This document shows positions 17,203 through 61,684 of a stretch of DNA of 64,000 nucleotides, in pieces. Source of the DNA: Novakomyces olei (lineage: Eukaryota). Each line of letters starts with the position of its first letter. Position 1 is the stretch's first letter. The stretch covers positions 62,001 through 126,000 of the forward strand of contig JADEYG010000012.1 of the NCBI GenBank assembly GCA_016906335.1, read 5' to 3'. The position numbers were made by a program, and so were the translations under genes. The notes below the pieces were generated by a model. The model was given only the letters and a program-made list of their open reading frames with translations. It made no database searches and was not told the origin of the DNA.

Positions 17203-18079
17203 CTAGTAAAAAAATTTGTAATAAAGAAAGATAGCGAAAATTATGCCCACAATGCCGATAGGTCCGTATTGCCGCCAAATAGCCTCAAGATTGATGCGGC
17301 GAGCAGCACGGCGATACTTGAGACTTTCATCGCGTAGATTTGAGCTTAGATCAGTCATGCGGTCCAGCGAATCACCACGATACAATAAGTCTTCAATGTT
17401 TTTCGTCATGACACGTGTAACATCCTGTAAGTCTGCATGGAGCTGATCCAAGTTGCTTGAGGCTTTTGGTGCAACAAATGAGCGCTGTAATTTTTGAATA
17501 TTGTTATCTTGTATGTAAGTCAACTGCATCCGTAAATTGACACAAAGGAAGTTGCAAAAATGAGAATAAACACAATAAAATAGGCTTACCAAATTGGACA
17601 AACGCGTAAGGTCGAAGGCCATGCTGTAATGATTCGGCGCCATAATTTGCTTGAAACTCTCGCGATAACTCATTTAAATAGGTGAAAGCTAATTTACGTG
17701 GAAAGCTCTGATCACAAATACAGAGATAACAGATCGATGCATCAATGAGGTAGCTAAAAGTTGTTAATAAAATCCTTTTAATTTGATCCAGATACTGTAA
17801 GATATAATTTCCCGACTCTATTGATGCGCGAGGTTCGGAGTTTAAATTTAATTTTCGGACAACTAATTTGGCCTGATGCTTCTGGTCGGCTAGATCATTC
17901 TCGGCCTTGAATTATGGATATTAGTATAGCTTTCACGATTGGTGTGGTTTTGCATTACCTGTTCATCGTCTACAGATGCTGCTAAAGGAAGACCTGCATT
18001 TTGTTAACTAATTTACAATGGCAATAATTTCGATCTTCTTACTGTCTGTCACACGATAAATAGACGTTGACCGCACCAT
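17203..18079 (-). CDS. SEC22: R-SNARE Sec22, 5 exons
   Basis: MVRST..LPLAASVDDEQ, FPRKLAFTYL, RPYAFVQFD, DVTRVMTKNIEDLLYRGDSLD, C-terminal TM; four GT-AG introns. Confidence 0.93.
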
Positions 18080-34737: not shown

Positions 34738-35148
34738 TGACCTTGTCGCTCCACTCGGGAGTCAAGTTAGAGTTCAAACAAGTCAATCGAGAATGAGGTA
34801 AGATATATAATATATCATTATGTCGACATGATAATCATACACAAAATAGTAAATTTAACAATATATTACAATAACATTACAATTGTATTGTGAAATGCTT
34901 CTTGTTTCTGAAAAGATATATTAAAGATCAGTTACCGGTATTTATAACAGTTAGTGCTAGAATAAGAAAATAACCCTAACCCTAATAGATTCGGGCTTAC
35001 TACGCCCAACAATAATATTATTGTAATATTACAATAATATTACAATAATATTACAATAATAAAACAATGAATATAAAAACAAATCGTCGCGAATTAGGAT
35101 AATCACAGATCCAATACGAGGCATATAGACAGCCTGGCACGATCCAGC

Positions 35149-39060: not shown

Positions 39061-42000
39061 ATGAAATGGGAGCTTGACAGGTCGGGCCTCGAAAAATTCA
39101 CGGCGCGAGAGCAGCCAAAGATAGTGCTTAGTCAACTTGCTAAAGCAAAACGGTTTCTGGAAGCCAATCCGGAGACTGAGGCGCCGACAATATGGCAGGA
39201 CATTGTACGGCCAGCATTGGAGCTAGCTCAGGTCGCACCTTTACCGTACACAACTGTCAATACGCGCATGCTAGCGCAAGTGATCAATATAGTGATTTCT
39301 AAAAGTAAGATTTATATGCTGCTCTGATTAGTTACTAAATTTGCTCTCAAGATGATTCTAAAGTGTCCACCGATTTGCTGTCGAGCATCGTCGATGCGCT
39401 CAAAGCTGGTATAAAGGATCAAAACGCGAGGATAGTAGTGTTTAAAGTGCTAAACAATTCAATCGCTGCTGCACAGAGACCGGAGCTTGTCGCCCTATAT
39501 TCCTTGGACATTGCCACGTTTTGCCTCAAACAGACAAAGCACAAGCTCACTCAATCGACCACCAAAACACTCTTCGGACTTCGTGTAGAGGCATTCATTC
39601 TAATGAAATATATTGTGGATCTGCGGTTAAATACTCCCGAAAACTTTGCAAAGGAGTTGTGGAGAGCAATGAAGTCCAGTCTTAGCTCTAAAGCAAGCCT
39701 AGAGCAATTATCGGCTTTGAGATGCCTTTCTTCTTTCATTGGGGCCCCTCAAATGGCTTTGGTGACTGACGTGGAAAGCTTGGTCTCACTGCTAGCACGG
39801 CATATCCCAACTTTTGGGAGAAAATGCTGTGATTCCGCTGCGGAATGCCTGGGTGTCCTTGTTTATTGCCATGCTTCAAAAACCAAGGAAAATCATGAGA
39901 CTCGTACATCATTGGAAAACTCTATTGGACAATTTCCGATTCATTCGGCTCAGTTCTTTGCCGATGCTCTCTCTATCATTACTGACTTATTGTTAAAATA
40001 TCCAGGTGTACAAAACTTTCATCTTGTTTGTTTCAAGGCCTACCAAGATGCGCTGGGGCTCATGCCTTCGCGTATAATCATTTCACAAACGCATCCTATC
40101 ATTAATCATTTCTTGCAAGTCCTTTCTTCCCCCGTAATCGATGGAAAAGCCTGGCTGAAGCGTAGAATTCGGTCAAACATGAAGCTGGTGTTGGAACAAA
40201 GTCTCAATTTATCCCTAAACGAGCCAACGGAAATTAGTACAATCAAATGCATTTGTGAAGATCTGCTCTCTGTTCAAAACGTGCGCTCACATTTGAGGCC
40301 TAATGCGGTGGCATTATGTTTTTTTGAAGCTTCTACTCTCGTTTTGCGAGTACAAGATGCTCTCTTACCGATAAAGGTGAGTTATACATGACTTTTTTAA
40401 GATTTTTGTATAATTTTATCATATTGCTTTCATTGATTTCTTTCTAGATTGAAATCTTGCGATAAGTTTAATTCATTTTATTCTAGTCTTGTTTGTGTCT
40501 AACTGATAAGGACATTATCGAACGCTGTATTTTGCGATGGCTGGACGAAGGTGACGAAGTGATAAACACGCATTGCGCTGTTTTCTCGTGGCATTACACG
40601 TTTGTGGTGCCATCGACGATACCATCTTTGTTTAGTCAATTTATGAACAAGGCGGAAAAGTTTTACAAAGGATTTGAGGTAGAGAAAAAAATTAAAAATT
40701 AAATTTTATGCTAACAACGACTCGTTTAGACTGCTGTTGATAAAAAAGTCGTGAACAGGCTGTTTTCCTATGCATATGCTCTTGCGGGCCTGACCCGTGT
40801 ATCTTGGCAGAAGCCTTTGTATACATCTCCAGAAAATTTTACCAAAGTTTTCGATTATGCGACTCGTATATTAGAGTTTAGCAAAAGTCGTGATACAATA
40901 TTGTCCAGTCGGCTCTCAGAAGTCGCGTGGTGTTTGCTTTCTTCGCTTATGGTCAGCGAAGACGTTGTGCGCCTTAATCTCGCGGAGTTTTTCGTTTTGT
41001 GGAAGAATGCAATTCCGAAGGAAGTTACAAGCATGCAGCATGAAGATCCGGTCGTACTAAACTCACGAATTGCTTCGCATAATCAGTGTCTGCATTCTAT
41101 ATACTCCTTCCTTGTACACTGTCCAAAACTCGCTACGTCTGATGTGGAACTGAGACTCATGTCTGTTGTATCATCCAACATGCTATTCTTAAAGGCAGTT
41201 CCCAGTCAAATAATGGCCGACAGTTCTCAACAACAACAGTCAGTAAAGAATGAACGTCTTGATCTGCATCAAACATGCGAGGCATTAACCTACCTTTGCT
41301 ATTCTCTTATGGCAAATCACTTGGGACACGAGATTCTGGGCAGCGATTTACTTTCGCTCTCAGTTTCACGCTTTGCCGACCCTCTTGTTATAGGCAGACA
41401 AAATTCTTCTGCAACTACGGGGATGGGGGATTTATGGAATACAACTGATAATTATGCTTATGGTCTTTCACATATCGCAGAGTATGAGCGCACTAATTTC
41501 ATGTCACTTACATTATCTTCGGGAATATCTTTTTCCACAAAATACGGGAGCTTTGTGCCCCGATCTGATGATATTGAATCACGATCACCTTTTGCCTTTG
41601 ATATTGAGGACGATCGAATGGGCGCGCTCAATATGCCTCTTGCCAGCCTTTACAATTATCGTGGGGTTTCTTTGCCGGCCACTAAATTAGTGGACTCTTC
41701 TATCATTCTGTTTGGTACTTTATTACCTCTGCAGCCTATCAAGGTTCAAGAAAGCATACTGGACGAAATGAGTACTTTTCTGGAGCCACGTCAAACATCG
41801 CTATCTGCTCCACGTATATTGGCTTCTAAGATTAATATTGCTATTGCTCTTTCGATTTATGTCAAGACTTTGTTGGCGGTTGAATCGATTTCGGAAAAGA
41901 TCTCCAGCTTTCGTAGATGCATTGCTATGGTCAATTCTTTCTTGAGGGTAAGAAGAGAAAAAAATAAAAAAATTAACTTTAAAATAAATAGAAGATAATA

Positions 42001-45000
42001 AAATTAGAAAGAAAAACAAAACAAGAGAATTGAAAAATAAAAATAAAAATGGAAGTACTAACAATAATTTGAAAATGTTAAATGTGAAAATTGAAAATCA
42101 AAATTCTATATACAACACCAGCATATTGGCCGTCAAAAATAATACAAAAAGAAAAATTACCGTACCCCAGCATTACTAACAATTTTATAGGAATTTGCTG
42201 CGGATACTGATCCCGTGCTAGCGCATATCGCCGGTGACAGCCTTGCAATGTTGTGCAAGCATGCGTCAATGAATGAACTGGCGCAGGATACGGAGTACTT
42301 CATACAAAAAATTGTTAAAAATACAAATCCCGAGTTAAGGGCTAATTGTATAAAAACTCTGGCTTGGGTGCAAGCTTCGAAAGGCAGAGCCACGTCTTTG
42401 AGAAATTTGAGCAATGTTTCCAACGTCGTTTTGACGCTTTTGCAAGATGCGCATCCCCTCGTTCATGGTACATCGCTGCAAAGTCTTGCTTATCTTATTG
42501 AGCAATGTGGTCTCTATGACGCGAAAAAGGTTATTGATTCAATCTTGATGTTTGCGTGTTCCAAAGAGAAGGATCTTTCCTTAACAATGAGAAACTTTTC
42601 AAACTTGGGACTGGAAGTCCCCGTTGATTACTATATCGGCGTTGTACTGGAAGCTTTTGTGATCTCAGTTGGTCCGGAATTGACTTTAAAGCCTGAATTT
42701 GTCAGCGACTGCTGGATTCTGATAAACGTTCTTTTAATGCATCGATCTGCTTTAGTATACTCTCAAGCCTGGACGTGTCTTCGTCAGTTTCTGCTGTTTG
42801 TGAAAGTACCCGGCGAGGCTGAAAAGTCGGTAAAAACACTGTATGAAGTTATTACGCATCGTAGTGCGCGGGTGCGGTTATCCTCTTTGGACGCTTTGTA
42901 CCAGATTGTTAGATTGTTCCCGGACACAATGCAAATAATACTAAAGCAAGATCGAGGTTTCCGGCTCTGGTTGACTGTTGATCAAGATTCTGCTAATGGA
43001 GCGGTACGTGGCCTTTTGGACTTGTGGTACGCCTTTGTGAGCAGACTGAGTCCTGCTCTTGCCTTTGAGTATCTGTATAGAATTGCCTCAAACACAAGAG
43101 ACTCGTCCGGTAAACGTAAGCAGTTGCAGACGGAAGCCATAGACAATTTGGACGAGGAAGCCATGTCGATTGCCACAGACGCAAATCTGGATGAGGACAT
43201 TTCGCTGGTCGTTTTTCGCTGGCAATCAAAGTTACTTGCCCTGCAGTACATTCATAAACTCGTTTCGCTTTCCGATCCAGCGGATTCCAAGGACAGTATC
43301 ACAAAGATCTTGATGCAAAGATTACAAGACTTGATCTCTTTAACGTTTACAGCCTCAACCAGCGAAATTGTAGATTTTGGACTGGAAGGATTGAAGCTTT
43401 TGCGCTTGATACTCCGAAAATATGCAGCTGTTCCAGATCCACATTTCCAAGAATTGTCTATACTGGAACAGCATCAGGCTCAGATTGTTAGTGCACTGAC
43501 TCCAGGGTTTTCCAAGTCTGCTTCGCCCGAGCTTGCTACTTTTGCCGTCGAATTAGCGGCAGATTTTGTAGCAAGTTCTGTGGTCCCTGATCTGGGCAAA
43601 ATGGCTCGAGTCATTAGACTCCTGACTGGATCTCTTGACGAGCTTACGAATCCTTTGACTTTGAATGGAGCCGGTGCAGGAGCCGGGACGGGAACTGAAA
43701 ATGTTCAAGGTATCTTGAAGATCGCAGTACTTTCTTCATGGGCGAAATTGCAAACAAGCTCCCTTGTCCAAGCTTATCTGACCGACATTTGCAAGCCTCA
43801 TCAATTGAAACTTGCTTCTCTCTGGCTGAGCTGTTTAAGGTCTTTTGCCAGGTTAAAGTTTCTACCAATGGCAGCAACAGAGCTCGATATAGCCTCAGGC
43901 CGGGTCTCCTTAATTGCGAGGTCAGTTCTTCTGGGCAAACATGAAGAGACCTGGATTTCTATGGTCAATGCAATTGCGAGTTTATTGCAGAACAACAATC
44001 AGCTAGTTATTGAAGCTCTGAATTCAACGCGAAACACAAACAATCCCGCTATTTGTTCAACTGCATATGCAATAGCATCCAGTGTGTCTGTACCTTCTAA
44101 TCCAGAGGAGAACGAGTCCGATGGAATAGATTACAGTAACGAGCCAGTGGCATTTTTCTTCATTTTATTTGGACTTTGCCTACAGAGCCTCGTTCTTTCG
44201 ACGGACCGTATGGTATACAACGAGTCTCTGGCACCAAAGCTTGAAGTGTTAACGGCAATGGACCGGTTCTTACAACCTGAAATTTGCAGGAATATTGTTT
44301 ATGACGAAGAAATATTTGCAGAATTAACGCAGATACTTTCTCGTCTGGTGCTTACAGAGGGATGGGCAGTACGTGCGAAAATAACACAAATTGTTTACAA
44401 TTTAGCCAGAGCTCATCCAGCGGCAAAAGAGCTGTCGCTCAATTCTGAGATTGATTTAACACATTTTGGTGATTTGTCATCCGTAGTTGATCAGCTTTTT
44501 GAGCTCTCTCGGATCGTTACAATGGCCCTGCTGTATTGGGAGCCGGTTATTGAAAAAATGGGGCTCGATGATAAAGCCGGTGAGACTATAAAGCAGGGGC
44601 TCTATACTTTTATTGAGATTGCCAAAATATTCCCTGTTGTTATTCGTAAGGATCTGTACAGGGCTGCCTTTTTCATTATTAAGCATTATTTAACGGGTCC
44701 ATCAACGGGTAAAAGGGTTGGCGTTTATGTTTTACCAAGTGTAAAACAACTGTGCAGTGCTAGCCTAGATCAGTTTGGACCTAAGGGGGCCATGGACATT
44801 ATAAGAGATGCGCTTGATACATTTTCAAGTATGATCAGCAGCAGCCAGGTGGAAACACGTCAAAAAGAAAATAGCCTGGACGAGGGCCAGCATGATCAAG
44901 AGTCTATTAGCAGCGGCGATAGTCTGGACCGAGACCAAAGTGCGAGTGCAATTTTGGCAGGAACAATCATTATAACAACAGCCGGCTCCGTTTTCCCCGA

Positions 45001-47928: not shown

Positions 47929-48971
47929 TTAATCTCTTCCATCTGGAAAAGAGCCCAAAATACTGATAATCATACCTAGTCCACGTATGTGGTTCAGCAC
48001 TGGCTGTAGATCAGAGGCATGAGCAGCGCACTCGAGGAAAAAGACATAACGCCAAGCTTCGCGGGCGGGATCAGGCCGGGAAACCAAATTTGTTAAATTG
48101 ATGTCATTAGCCTTGAAAGCAAAAAGGGCGTCAGTCAAGGCTCCAGGAGCATCGTTTTGCATTTCTATTCGTACCAAAGTACGATCACGGCCTGACTTTG
48201 GAGCATAATTGTGTGATAGAACCAAAAACCGCGTGCAGTTACCTTCTTTATTCTCAATACCTTTTGCTATTAAGGGCACATGGTAAAGCGGTTCGCAAAT
48301 TTCACTGCTAATTGCAAGTGCATTAGCATCGTGATTCGCCATTTCAGCAGCCCTTGAAGTCGATCCTACAGGGATTCGCTCTGCTTGCGGAACGTTAGCG
48401 TCAAGCCAAACGTCGCACTGGCCAAAAGCCTGTTTGCGTAAGCAAGCAATGAACATTGAATATAATACGCAAAAAAAAAAAACAAAACAAAAAGCAATCG
48501 ACAGAGTCAATGATTAAATAGGTAAAACTGAACCAGATTCGAATCATTTTGAACACAAGCACGAAACTGCATTATACAATATCGGCCAGTAACATACTTG
48601 TGGGTGAGAGTAGACTCGCTGTACTTTTGCCAATTCTGAGCACCTGCTCAAAGCACATGGCCGTACTTTGACGTAACATTCAGCACAGGCAACGAGATCT
48701 TTCTCGCCGCGTAAAAGATCAAATGCTCCTACTACGGCTCCATTTGTTGAATTCTCTATTGGTAAAAGACCATACTGTGCGCTCCCGGAGCGCACGGATT
48801 CAAAGACATCTGTACGGTAAATTTACTGACTTTATTCAAACATTCAATTAATTATTTACCTTGGAAACGAGTGCACGGAAGCAATTTTGCTGCTGCATAC
48901 CCTTGCAGACCTGCCTCGTGCGAAAAACTGCCAGCCGGGCCCAAGTAAGCCAGCGTGTCGCCGTGCTCCAT
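47929..48971 (-). CDS. PHA2: Prephenate dehydratase, 3 exons
   Basis: AYLGPAGSFSHEA, PIENSTNG, YSHPQAFGQC, N.TRFLVL, ACT domain PGAL..AL..F....INL....SRP, LGSFP. Confidence 0.92.
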
Positions 48972-52079: not shown

Positions 52080-52617
52080 CTAGTCGGCTGTAATGAGCTC
52101 ATTAACAGACCAGTCCTCGTAGGCGCCGTCAGGGAGATACCGTCTGATTAGTAGGGGAATCCGTTTTTGAACAAGTTCTTTTTGTGCGATAACAAGAGGA
52201 TCGCTTTCGCCCTCCAAGTCTACGAGTACGGGCGCATTGAGACTAATTTGAAGCGCACGTGTTCCTAAAATACGAGCCTTCTCGTACTTTGTGAGGTAAG
52301 GGGTAGTCTGCCGCTCTTCTTTTGGAATTTCCCTAGTGCCGTCGCTGCCGCGTACAGCAGCAGCAGCAGCTGCTGCTGCTACATCGCCAGAGAGGATATA
52401 ATCATGTCCCGATGTGTCTGTTCCGTTTATACCATTAACGCCATTTACAGCTGTATCTTTTTCCTCCTCGTCGGCTCCAGGCGGCGGCATAAGCTCGTCC
52501 TCTTCGAAAGCCGGCTCATCAAAACCGTAGCTGCAGTGTTAGACTTACTCTGATCTATAAAATATATTTGTTTGATTCATACTCGTCTCCTCCTTGATCA
52601 TCATCGTCGTAGTCCAT
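52080..52617 (-). CDS. RPB6: RNA polymerase common subunit Rpb6/Rpo26, 2 exons
   Basis: [42 protein letters not shown]...[18 protein letters not shown]. Confidence 0.96.
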
Positions 52618-53243
52618 TTTGCGTGTATTCTTCCAAGAAAAATCGTCTTTTTCTATCGCGAATTATTATTATATTTTATTGTTGTTGCAACTAACGGTAG
52701 AGCCGCCATAATAAGGCTCTGAAAAATTGTGTATTATTTGATTCAATATAAAGTTATTTACGTATAAACAAAACATGAATAATTCAGCAATTTTACTTGT
52801 AGGCATCTGCTCTTCAGGGCTACTAAATTCAGCATCGTGCCAGCGTAGAGCTTGATTCATGAAGAATTGGCTGCAAAAGTATGTTGCTGCAATGAATGTA
52901 TTTGCATACTGCTGCCACAATGGCTTCGTGCAAATATTGTATTCGCTTTTAGTCTTGTTTAAAGACCTTATAGTATTATTAGACTCAACACCATCCATCC
53001 TCATATTGTAGTAGATAAGACAAGACAAGGAAGAGATAGCCAACGATAACAGTAACGATATTCAAAAATGTAGTGTAAAACTTATAGGGCACCCTGGAAC
53101 CAATCTGATTAAAGTGATATACCCGTAATAAACGTATAAAGGGGGTAGCGTACAAGATAACATATAGGATAGAAAAACGAGAAAAAAAAAGTTTCAAGGC
53201 AGCGGGTAAATCAAGCTTTGCCATAGCCAATTTCACAGTTGAA

Positions 53244-54629
53244 ATGTCGTCGTCAGAGAACACGTGTGCGCCAACTGGCTCAAAGAAGCTTGTGCTTGCG
53301 TACTCTGGAGGCCTGGATACGTCATGTATCCTTGCCTACCTGATTGAACAGGGATGGGAAGTTATCGCCTACAGTAAGTTGAAGAGGAAAAACGATAAAA
53401 AGACTGAATTTGGTGGCAATTGACTAACCATGATCATAAATCTGCTCGGGCACAGCCCTTGCAGATTGATATTTTGAACATTTTAAGTGGCCGATGTTGG
53501 TCAGGAAGAAGATTTCGAAGAGGCTCGCAAGAAGGCACTCAAGATCGGTGCCAGCAAAGTATATATTGAAGATCTTCGTGAACAATTTGTGAAGGAAACC
53601 TGTTTCCCCGCAATTCGCTGCAATGCGGCTTATGAGAACGTGTACCTGCTGGGAACCTCATTGGCTCGTCCTGTTATTGCAAAAGCACAGATTGCAATTG
53701 CGGATAAAGAAGGCGCTACTGCAGTCTCCCACGGTTGCACTGGCAAGGGCAACGACCAGGTCCGTTTCGAGCTTGCGTTTTATGGATTAAAACCAGATAT
53801 CAAGATCGTTGCTCCCTGGCGTGATCCCTTGTTCTGCAGCCGTTTCCGAGGCCGCAGTGATCTGCTCCGTTACGCAGCAGAAAAGGGTATCCCAGTCACA
53901 CAGACACAGGCCAAGCCTTGGTCCACGGATGAGAATCTGGCTCATATCTCTTACGAGGCCGGTATCCTTGAGGACCCGGATGTTACCCCACCAAAGGATA
54001 TGTACAAATTAACCGTGGATCCATTGGATGCTCCGGATAAGCCGGAAGATTTCTCCATTGACTTTGCTAATGGCTTCCCTGTCCGATTGACTTATGAGAA
54101 TGGAAAGGCCGCTACAAAGCCGCTTGATCTGTTTTTGACGCTCAACAAGATTGCTCGTCGCAACGGTATTGGCCGAATTGACATCGTGGAGAACCGTTTC
54201 ATCGGTGTCAAATCCCGAGGCATTTACGAGACGCCGGCTATCACAATCTTGCGCCTGGCTCACATGGATCTGGAAGGGTTGACCATGGATCGCGATTTGC
54301 GTGCCCTGCGTGATCAATTTGTTACCTTCAACTATGCACGTCTGCTGTACAATGGCTTTTTCTACTCGCCTTCTATGCGCATGCTTCACGCTGCCATTGA
54401 TGCCAGCCAGGAGACTGTTAACGGAAAAGTTCGTGTTCGGGCTTACAAGGGCAATACTATTATCCTGGGCCGCAGCTCCGACGAGAAACTTTACAGCGCA
54501 GAGGAGTCGAGTATGGACGACCTCACCGGGTTCGATCCTACTTGGGCCACTGGATTTATCCAGCTGCAAGCGCTGCCGCTCAAGAAGGCGACTGCCGCTC
54601 TGCAAAAGCACCTCAAGGAAGATAAGTAG
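53244..54629 (+). CDS. ARG1: Argininosuccinate synthase, 2 exons
   Basis: [58 protein letters not shown]; intron 53374-53487. Confidence 0.97.
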
Positions 54630-55022
54630 AGCAGTGTAAAGGTTCTATAGTGAATCTGACAGGAATACAAGTGTAATTAGTATTGGCTTAGATGTAGCTC
54701 CGAATAAGACAATTGTATTCTGGTAAAGAGTAGTGATATTCTTGTCAATGCAGCTGTAGACGAAGATCATGACACGTACAGCCAGAAGCCTTGCAGAATC
54801 TTGATTGCCATTGTGATTGTGCGCGAATTGCAATATTGTTGGCCAATTGGCTGCTACAAGAACAAGTAAGTACCGTAAGCTATACAGTTTATTGTATACA
54901 TTTGTTTCATTGCCTTGCTTATTTTATAAATTTATATGTAAATAAATAGATAAATATATGTATATATAAATGTATATATAAATTACAGATTTAAAATAAT
55001 CCTATATAATATCAACACATCT

Positions 55023-55046
55023 ACCCTACCCTACTCGACAGTCACA
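55023..55046 (+). promoter_or_regulatory. Homol E (ACCCTACCCT) + Homol D (CAGTCACA) ribosomal-protein promoter module
   Basis: Exact S. pombe-type boxes 60-85 bp upstream of the RPS0 ATG. Confidence 0.85.
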
Positions 55047-60551: not shown

Positions 60552-61684
60552 TCATGTTATAATCTTTTGCTGGACATAATCCACAGTCCTTGTGCCCAAT
60601 TGACTGTCGACCCATGTCCGTGTCTCCTCAACTTCTTGCACACTTTTCGCTTTGTCTAATCGCTGTAAAGCTTCGTCCAAAACAGTAGCCGAAGCCGATC
60701 TTTCTTTGCCCGTCGCAGCCAGGGCCATTTGTTTCTCTAATTCACCATTCTCTGCTTCCAGACGTGCCACCCGCTCTTGTAAATCCGCTTTATCGCCCAA
60801 TTTTATGCGTGGAGGAAGCACACTCGGAGCTTCAATATCGTAAACATTCTGCAACGATTCAAGTACATACTGCATCCACTCGTGCTGCCTTGCATATCGT
60901 GCCCGACTCACATTACGCGGCGTCATCATATCAATCTCGTCCCCCAACAGTCTTTCGTCTTCCTCTTTCACCCGTTTCCTTGACCCTGTCGCTGTTGACG
61001 CATTAGCGGGCGCAGGAGCAGGAATAGGCGCCGGAGCAGCAGCAGCGGGAGCAGATGAAGCTGGAGCCTGCTTTGTTCCACTGCTTAAAAGCTCTACCAG
61101 CTGAAACTGCCGACTTGAGACTGTGGGCAAAGGGTATTGCCGCGGCGGCTGTGGATGGGCAGCTGCCGGATTAACAGGGATCCGATCAGTATCGACAGAT
61201 CTTAAATACTGCAATAGCCACAGACTATCATGGCCTCCATATTGCGAGGTTACTCGGAACCGCCGACGCACGCGCGACGTTATTGCTTCAGCTCCCGGGT
61301 AAAATCCGAGCTTGCACTCACGGCATTCAAGTATGCGCCCGGGCGTCTGTACCTGGTGGACCGTTTCACTGTCCATATATTGAAGCCCGTCTGGAGGAAC
61401 ATTGGCACTTTGTGGAAGAAAAACGAGTATTACACTTCCATCTGCGGGTCTATCAATCGTGTTCCATACAAAGGGTATCTAGGCGTAAGCCAAATTCGTC
61501 TTGATTGATTGCTTTTGGATAGACTTACCTGAGGAAGAATTGAGGCCGCTCTCAACAACATTTCAACAATATTTTCGAGCGTTAGTTGCGCGTTTGGAGG
61601 GTAAGAGAGCACTGCCCGGCACCAAACTTGGCCGCGATATTCGCGCGGCAGGCCTTGCAGCGCCTGTGTCGCGGACACAGCCAT
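60552..61684 (-). CDS. ssr4: SWI/SNF-RSC subunit Ssr4 (DUF1750), 2 exons
   Basis: Intron 61479-61528 yields ...LLRA...|IPFVWNTIDRPADGSV...DGLQYMD.E...K.GF.PG....SR.RRRFR...LWLLQY...GDE.D.MTPR.VS.ARY.RQHEWM. Confidence 0.8.

Follow-up and report, generated by a model that had tools for sequence, protein, structure and literature searches.

The distance between branch point and acceptor separates yeast species into constrained and unconstrained classes (PMC3239191), and Irimia and Roy described this distance as convergently constrained in several yeasts (PMC2483917). In S. cerevisiae the relative branch-to-acceptor distance is reported to have to lie below 45 nt (PMC11585973), and those Saccharomycotina gaps of more than 60 nt that were checked by the authors of an earlier study all fold stably (PMC3239191). 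In the S. cerevisiae COF1 and UBC13 introns, disruption of the stem either exposes the first upstream AG to use or blocks the second step, a defect that is relieved by compensatory changes (Gahura et al. 2011, PMC3239191). In S. pombe, weakening of the fold impairs splicing of rap1 intron 2 and of atg20 intron 2, and compensatory changes likewise rescue it (PMC9508853).

Here we analyze the single intron of an argininosuccinate synthase gene, ARG1, in a 64-kb window, a term that we use for the whole 64,000-nt stretch of DNA under study. Like COF1 and UBC13, this intron combines a long gap, a stable predicted stem and apparently silent, non-productive upstream AGs, and its stem is predicted to act as theirs does, by masking AGs and by shortening the distance (PMC3239191). 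Unlike them it belongs to a different gene in a different lineage, the gaps of its host being otherwise of 6-17 nt and thus of the type called "constrained" in that study, and in contrast to the nested stems of COF1 the ARG1 hairpin is a single small element of 29 nt (PMC3239191). The structured, branch-distant introns of S. pombe are comparable in that they arise in a genome of mostly short gaps, where a few dozen exceptions fold, but the emphasis there lies on effective distance and on the proteins Sde2, Cactin and Tls1 rather than on masked out-of-frame AGs (PMC9508853). A further parallel is K. lactis ACT1, in which structure hides upstream cryptic acceptors (Deshler and Rossi 1991, as cited in PMC3239191 and PMC9508853), although this is another gene, its structured region is far longer and the test was made in a heterologous construct. 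Among the literature matches listed, we found no description of an ARG1 intron switch or of a similar ARG1 case. The initial annotation of the locus had stated that stems between branch point and 3' splice site steer acceptor choice in S. cerevisiae and that one of them, in APE2, serves as a thermosensor; the sources cited here agree with it on this precedent (PMC3239191, PMC11585973).

Anatomy of the ARG1 intron

The region 53244-54629 (+) encodes argininosuccinate synthase in two exons split by one intron (Table 1). The Pfam profile PF00764 is matched in two parts, 1-31 in exon 1 and 31-162 in exon 2, the latter exon shares 66-78 % identity with fungal argininosuccinate synthases, and joining of the two exons gives the sequence ...GWEVIAYMADVGQ.... 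The intron opens with a GTAAGT 5' splice site at 53374-79, and the synthase frame (423 codons, ...GWEVIAY-MADVGQ...) is restored by the AAG acceptor only. When the intron is retained, the frame ends at TGA 53421-23. This stop codon overlaps the branch heptamer GACTAAC.

The initial annotation had placed GACTAAC at 53422-28 and the required AAG at 53485-87; both positions are right, and the branch A of the heptamer lies 60 nt from G53487. Just two AGs are found between these signals, in the CAGs ending at 53455 and 53464. As also claimed, use of the one or the other adds 32 or 23 nt and shifts the frame, both products stopping at TGA 53467-69; the resulting ORFs have 47 codons (53455) and 44 codons (53464).

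Table 1. Coordinates of the ARG1 features and of other elements mentioned in the text (positions are those of the window).
Feature	Position	Strand	Remarks
ARG1 exon 1	53244..53373	+	ATG at 53244; 43 codons plus first base of Met codon
Sole ARG1 intron	53374..53487	+	114 nt, phase 1, GTAAGT ... AAG
Consensus branch site GACTAAC	53422..53428	+	predicted branch A 53427; 60 nt to G53487
Predicted hairpin	53439..53467	+	7-bp stem, 2x2 internal loop, 4-bp GC stem, ACA triloop
Putative decoy acceptor CAG 1	53453..53455	+	+32 nt, frameshift; within hairpin
Putative decoy acceptor CAG 2	53462..53464	+	+23 nt, frameshift; wholly in 3' arm of stem
Weak branch candidate GATTGAT	53464..53470	+	A 53469, 18 nt to acceptor; 0.07 bits
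Premature TGA	53467..53469	+	reached from either decoy CAG
Spacer between hairpin and acceptor	53468..53484	+	U-rich, without AG; direct sequence reading
Weak branch candidate TTTGAAC	53473..53479	+	A 53478, 9 nt to acceptor; -0.77 bits
Productive acceptor AAG	53485..53487	+	next bases TG-GCC-GAT (M-A-D-V-GQ)
ARG1 exon 2	53488..54629	+	ends at TAG stop 54627-29; PF00764 31-162, then PF20979
Telomere-like and ACCCTACCCTAC blocks	32762, 34975, 38408 (+); 56841 (-); 55020-55040 (+)		
Three CTTAC introns	48430-48597, 61479-61528, 17508-17589	-	prephenate dehydratase, Ssr4, longin-synaptobrevin

The closest protein relative, P0001, is 78 % identical to the ARG1 product, named fungi reaching ~71 %. 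Its gene call carries 18 non-homologous residues followed by V-ADVGQ, as expected from read-through of a phase-1 intron before TG-GCC, which indicates that intron position and phase are shared between the two genes. The Leu codon preceding this Val must end in A, so the corresponding acceptor would be TAG, not AAG. Apart from P0001, 119 homologues were compared; they carry [FYC]-[MLCT]-A-[DN]-[VIL]-GQ at this place or start at that Met, with the single exception of P0077 (VVDVGQ). Five entries (P0049, P0073, P0086, P0103 and P0120), among them the argininosuccinate synthase of Tortispora caseinolytica, start exactly at M-AD[VI]GQ and are devoid of the first ~34 conserved residues. These starts suggest missed first exons, and hence an intron at or near the site in other lineages. 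A metagenome scan for ARG1 returned 80 loci, the best of them at 67 % identity (L001, a fungal metagenome ARG1, 2150-2620). Within the first 350 nt of this locus there are at least four short introns; one precedes, by five codons, the Met codon that is split in ARG1, and another directly follows GQE. Intron positions near the site therefore vary between lineages and, since they are placed elsewhere, the L001 introns are of no use for assessing covariation of the stem.

ARG1 departs from the acceptor rule of the other introns in the window

Intron statistics were compiled from the 64-kb window only and comprise 19 introns besides that of ARG1, all of which are predicted models. They were obtained from strict-signal scans, from the continuity of Pfam profiles across adjacent ORFs (for instance RabGAP-TBC 2-101/103-216, Iki1 3-119/123-291, BOP1NT 1-114/111-259 and PDT 32-104/102-179) and from manual inspection. 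All models rest on ORF joining, and 9 of the 19 are further backed by a Pfam match that is split or N-truncated; the weakest are CBP4, with its short first exon, and ORF39339 and ORF47265, which have no Pfam match.

In these 19 models the branch-like motif nearest to the acceptor lies at 6-17 nt (median 10), against 60 nt in ARG1, which bears out the earlier estimate of roughly 4-20 nt for most other introns. Their acceptors are TAG in nine cases, CAG in seven and, as in ARG1, AAG in three. Without exception, the acceptor used by these models is the first AG at 6 nt or more beyond the branch A, AGs at 3-5 nt being skipped in 4 of the 19. Among the 20 introns ARG1 alone breaks this rule, by which CAG 53455 is predicted instead.

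The branch motifs of the 19 introns are CTAAC (11), CTTAC (3), CTAAT (2) and TTAAC, CTAAG and CTGAT (1 each). In three introns on the minus strand (Table 1), [GA]CTTAC is found 7-9 nt from the acceptor with no CTAAC nearby, which suggests that CTTAC is a second tolerated branch motif in this organism. The Laa1/HEATR5 intron (41948-42190, +, 243 nt) contains two ACTAAC motifs: the upstream one, at 42057, is followed by 60 nt without AG and lies 129 nt from the acceptor, and the downstream one, at 42175, lies 11 nt from the TAG acceptor.

A predicted hairpin encloses both intervening AGs

The arms AATCTGC/GCAGATT and GGGC/GCCC, proposed in the initial annotation to pair at 53439-53467, were recovered as the centroid fold of the 59-nt gap. 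This centroid has an energy of -16.7 kcal/mol (z -3.58), and only 1 in 200 dinucleotide shuffles folds as well. The entire ARG1 intron folded alone gave a z of only -1.75, which indicates that the fold signal is local. The mean pairing probability of the stem was 0.96, 0.92, 0.93 and 0.92 when computed in contexts of 114, 187, 457 and 751 nt, respectively.

Both AGs of the gap lie inside 53439-53467, and both are non-productive. The earlier statement that the hairpin covers the two CAGs holds in the sense that both are enclosed, but not in the sense that both are fully paired: the first CAG has its C53453 and A53454 in the ACA triloop, with G53455 alone paired, whereas the second CAG has an unpaired probability of 0.0 at every temperature tested (15 to 60 C).

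Folding of the core hairpin in 29 nt leaves 11 nt upstream and 20 nt downstream, that is, an effective distance of ~31 nt, about twice the longest gap (17 nt) among the 19 other introns. This value is inside the <45 nt quoted for S. cerevisiae and outside the 6-17 nt of the window. In a minor conformer an extra outer helix pairs 53430-32 and 53434-36 with 53479-81 and 53475-77, respectively. This helix is present in the minimum-energy fold of the gap (ensemble frequency 0.14), has a pairing probability of 0.12-0.20, and solely with it does the distance from branch to AAG fall to ~10 nt, the spacing that is usual for this genome.

We then consider how often such a structure occurs. In the 64 kb, 29-nt windows folding at -15 kcal/mol or better were found at 13 loci on the + strand, including the ARG1 hairpin (-15.6 kcal/mol), and at 8 on the - strand, several of the other loci being GC-rich coding repeats. 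From the + strand background, roughly 0.01 such loci are expected per 58-nt gap. None was found on either strand in the 19 other introns (1646 nt), and apart from the ARG1 hairpin the 20 introns contain no strong local structure. The observation is real and non-random; it comprises the anatomy of the sequence, a predicted fold that is rare, the consequences for the frame and the outlying distance.

An inverted repeat could nevertheless have nothing to do with splicing and represent a chance palindrome, an insertion footprint or a DNA-level protein-binding site, the AAG being selected by other means, for example through second-step factors able to cope with remote acceptors. In S. pombe it is Sde2, Cactin and Tls1, not structure, that handle some branch-distant introns (PMC9508853), a 1-in-100 event is conceivable given that 20 introns were inspected, and no second copy of the hairpin (up to 3 mismatches) was found in the 64-kb window by which a repeat family could be confirmed or excluded. 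However, this explanation accounts neither for the coverage of both AGs of the gap and of nothing else in it, nor for why two CAGs, 28 and 37 nt from the branch, would be passed over, given that the acceptor is the first AG at 6 nt or more in all of the 19 other introns, and we hold it to be very improbable.

Target stem-loops of Rnt1 (RNase III) are capped by an AGNN tetraloop. The ARG1 hairpin does not fit an intronic Rnt1 target in this respect, its loop being the triloop ACA.

The strongest local fold of the window was observed at 52300-52400, in the GCN (poly-Ala) repeat of RPB6, where 29 nt fold at -19.8 kcal/mol (+ strand) and -22.3 kcal/mol (- strand); this is a coding repeat, not an RNA element. 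Among the other repeats of the window are short telomere-like CCCTAA/CCTAACCCTAA blocks in intergenic regions and a ACCCTACCCTAC block just 5' of the RPS0 gene (Table 1), all of which may be Tbf1-type promoter elements, and, adjoining one of the telomere-like blocks, an AT-rich run of TATTGTAATATTA-like units with inverted copies (35010-35075).

Branching at the distal consensus site is favored

Since the branch motifs of the window are not uniform, the ARG1 intron was scored with a matrix derived from the 19 heptamers of the other introns, a partly circular instrument in that the training motifs had been picked by pattern and pattern-like sites are favored. GACTAAC, the sole consensus branch site in the intron, scores 9.63 bits (range of the 19 introns, 4.53-9.83), and the second-best heptamer 1.69 bits.

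The alternative is that a weak proximal branch is used, either TTGAT (A 53469, 18 nt) or TGAAC (A 53478, 9 nt). Such a branch would preserve the short spacing typical of the genome. In that case both CAGs would precede the branch and do no damage, with GACTAAC serving as a decoy or as a second branch and the hairpin being incidental. Spacings of 9 and 18 nt agree, or almost agree, with the range of the 19 introns, AAG 53487 is the first AG downstream of either candidate, and the degenerate branch motifs of the window, where according to the intron models non-consensus ones are in use, make a weak proximal branch possible. The Laa1 intron, with its distal and proximal ACTAAC, shows that an upstream consensus copy can occur alongside a proximal site. 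The read-through residues of P0001 permit, without requiring, a YTAAC ~12 nt from the acceptor, which is a lead only; such a motif would suit a history in which an ancestral proximal branch decayed in ARG1 and the distal consensus took over. However, when the 19 read-through residues of P0001 were compared by degenerate back-translation with the ARG1 intron, the alignment was not significant, 89 of 500 shuffles scoring as well. The two proximal candidates, at 0.07 and -0.77 bits, fall far from GACTAAC and do not reach even the minimum of the 19 training introns (4.53), and TTTGAAC has a G where 19 of 19 have T. GATTGAT overlaps the base of the hairpin stem, in which U53466-67 are paired, and A53469 is also paired in the 74-nt minimum-energy fold, so that the hairpin would occlude the TTGAT candidate. 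Finally, proximal branching would neutralize the CAGs but leave unexplained a hairpin of roughly 1-in-100 occurrence that sits exactly over both AGs. We consider proximal branching unlikely and, on the combined grounds of matrix scores, occlusion of TTGAT and an otherwise unexplained hairpin, favor A53427 as the branch point.

No support for a regulatory switch

The initial annotation had gone further and read the hairpin as a structure-gated switch between productive splicing and nonsense-mediated decay (NMD). According to this proposal, temperature, an RNA-binding protein or a metabolite would tune the hairpin, and the balance between the AAG and the early-stop CAGs would set ARG1 output. 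The anatomy permits it, as two CAGs of stronger consensus would be restrained by structure alone. Temperature-dependent acceptor choice is known for APE2, RPL23B and ATG38 (PMC11585973), and structured S. pombe introns with distant branch points splice in a heat-sensitive manner (PMC9508853). The computed properties of the ARG1 hairpin argue against it, and we regard a switch of this kind as very unlikely.

With respect to temperature, partition-function calculations on naked RNA in silico gave a pairing of 0.91-0.93 for the 7-bp stem and of at least 0.98 for the GC stem over the whole range from 15 to 60 C, the reverse of what a thermosensor requires. The APE2 thermosensor resembles ARG1 in that a stem-loop between branch point and acceptor occludes an alternative acceptor (Meyer et al. 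2011, as cited in PMC11585973). It differs in that its stem hides an AAG while splicing goes to the distal CAG, the reverse of ARG1; in that this stem melts on heat shock, whereas no melting is predicted for the ARG1 stem up to 60 C; and in that its alternative product is in frame (+6 residues), whereas the ARG1 alternatives are frameshifts that end after 44 or 47 codons (PMC11585973). An APE2-type thermosensor is not supported for ARG1, the stem being not marginal in silico and neither alternative giving an in-frame isoform.

With respect to metabolites, an Rfam cmscan of 53000-54000 with E values up to 1 returned no relevant family, riboswitches included. The sole match in this interval was a chance-level lncRNA in exon 1, which scored 16.7 bits where the gathering score is 70. 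Riboswitch-controlled splicing, whether of the fungal TPP type or of others, is not supported, as no curated Rfam aptamer is matched in 53000-54000. The structure itself is a plain hairpin, its stem interrupted by a 2x2 internal loop and capped by a triloop; it is without pocket-like complexity and presents no obvious ligand pocket.

Nothing points to a switch operated by a protein, which is conceivable but most improbable. If the hairpin were opened or clamped by a factor acting in trans, a structure-gated choice between productive and NMD-directed splicing could control arginine biosynthesis post-transcriptionally, a scenario to which we assign little probability; the candidates would be an arginine-responsive RNA-binding protein or a helicase. 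If true, gating by a trans-acting factor would constitute a control layer not known for ARG1 in any fungus.

The interpretation given in the initial annotation thus comes apart into two halves: the structural half fits everything that was computed, and the productive/NMD switch is without support.

A proposed constitutive fidelity element

The account that we prefer, and consider reasonably probable, is one in which the hairpin ensures correct acceptor choice at all times. The ARG1 pre-mRNA would branch at A53427 of GACTAAC, from where the usual rule of the window would select the out-of-frame CAG 53455 or, failing that, CAG 53464. Upon transcription, the sequence 53439-53467 would form a compact stem-loop that locks away both CAGs and cuts the branch-to-acceptor path from 60 nt to ~31 nt, or to ~10 nt in the minor conformer with the outer helix. 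AAG 53487 would then be the first accessible AG, following a U-rich spacer free of AG, and its use would lead to full-length argininosuccinate synthase. Leaky use of the CAGs would give rise to early-stop transcripts, which are expected targets of NMD. With the CAGs locked in the hairpin and the path shortened, the hairpin would be a constitutive fidelity element, not a sensor. The choice of branch, the formation of the hairpin in vivo and its control over acceptor choice are what we infer in this scheme.

This structural reading, which concerns a predicted fold, is well supported by the anatomy of the intron and by precedent, and the reading as a regulatory switch is unsupported. With ARG1 a known mechanism gains a further putative case, in the unusual setting of a genome whose gaps are otherwise short. 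No new question is opened by it, as mutagenesis in S. cerevisiae and S. pombe has demonstrated the principle from 2011 onwards.

Gene-prediction programs relying on the first AG beyond the branch would annotate the ARG1 splice junction wrongly. The intron would also make a clean natural test case, comprising a single small hairpin that masks two out-of-frame CAGs, and an AAG acceptor that is weaker than these. If the mechanism holds, structure-guided acceptor choice would extend to a deep-branching, intron-rich yeast with short branch-to-acceptor gaps.
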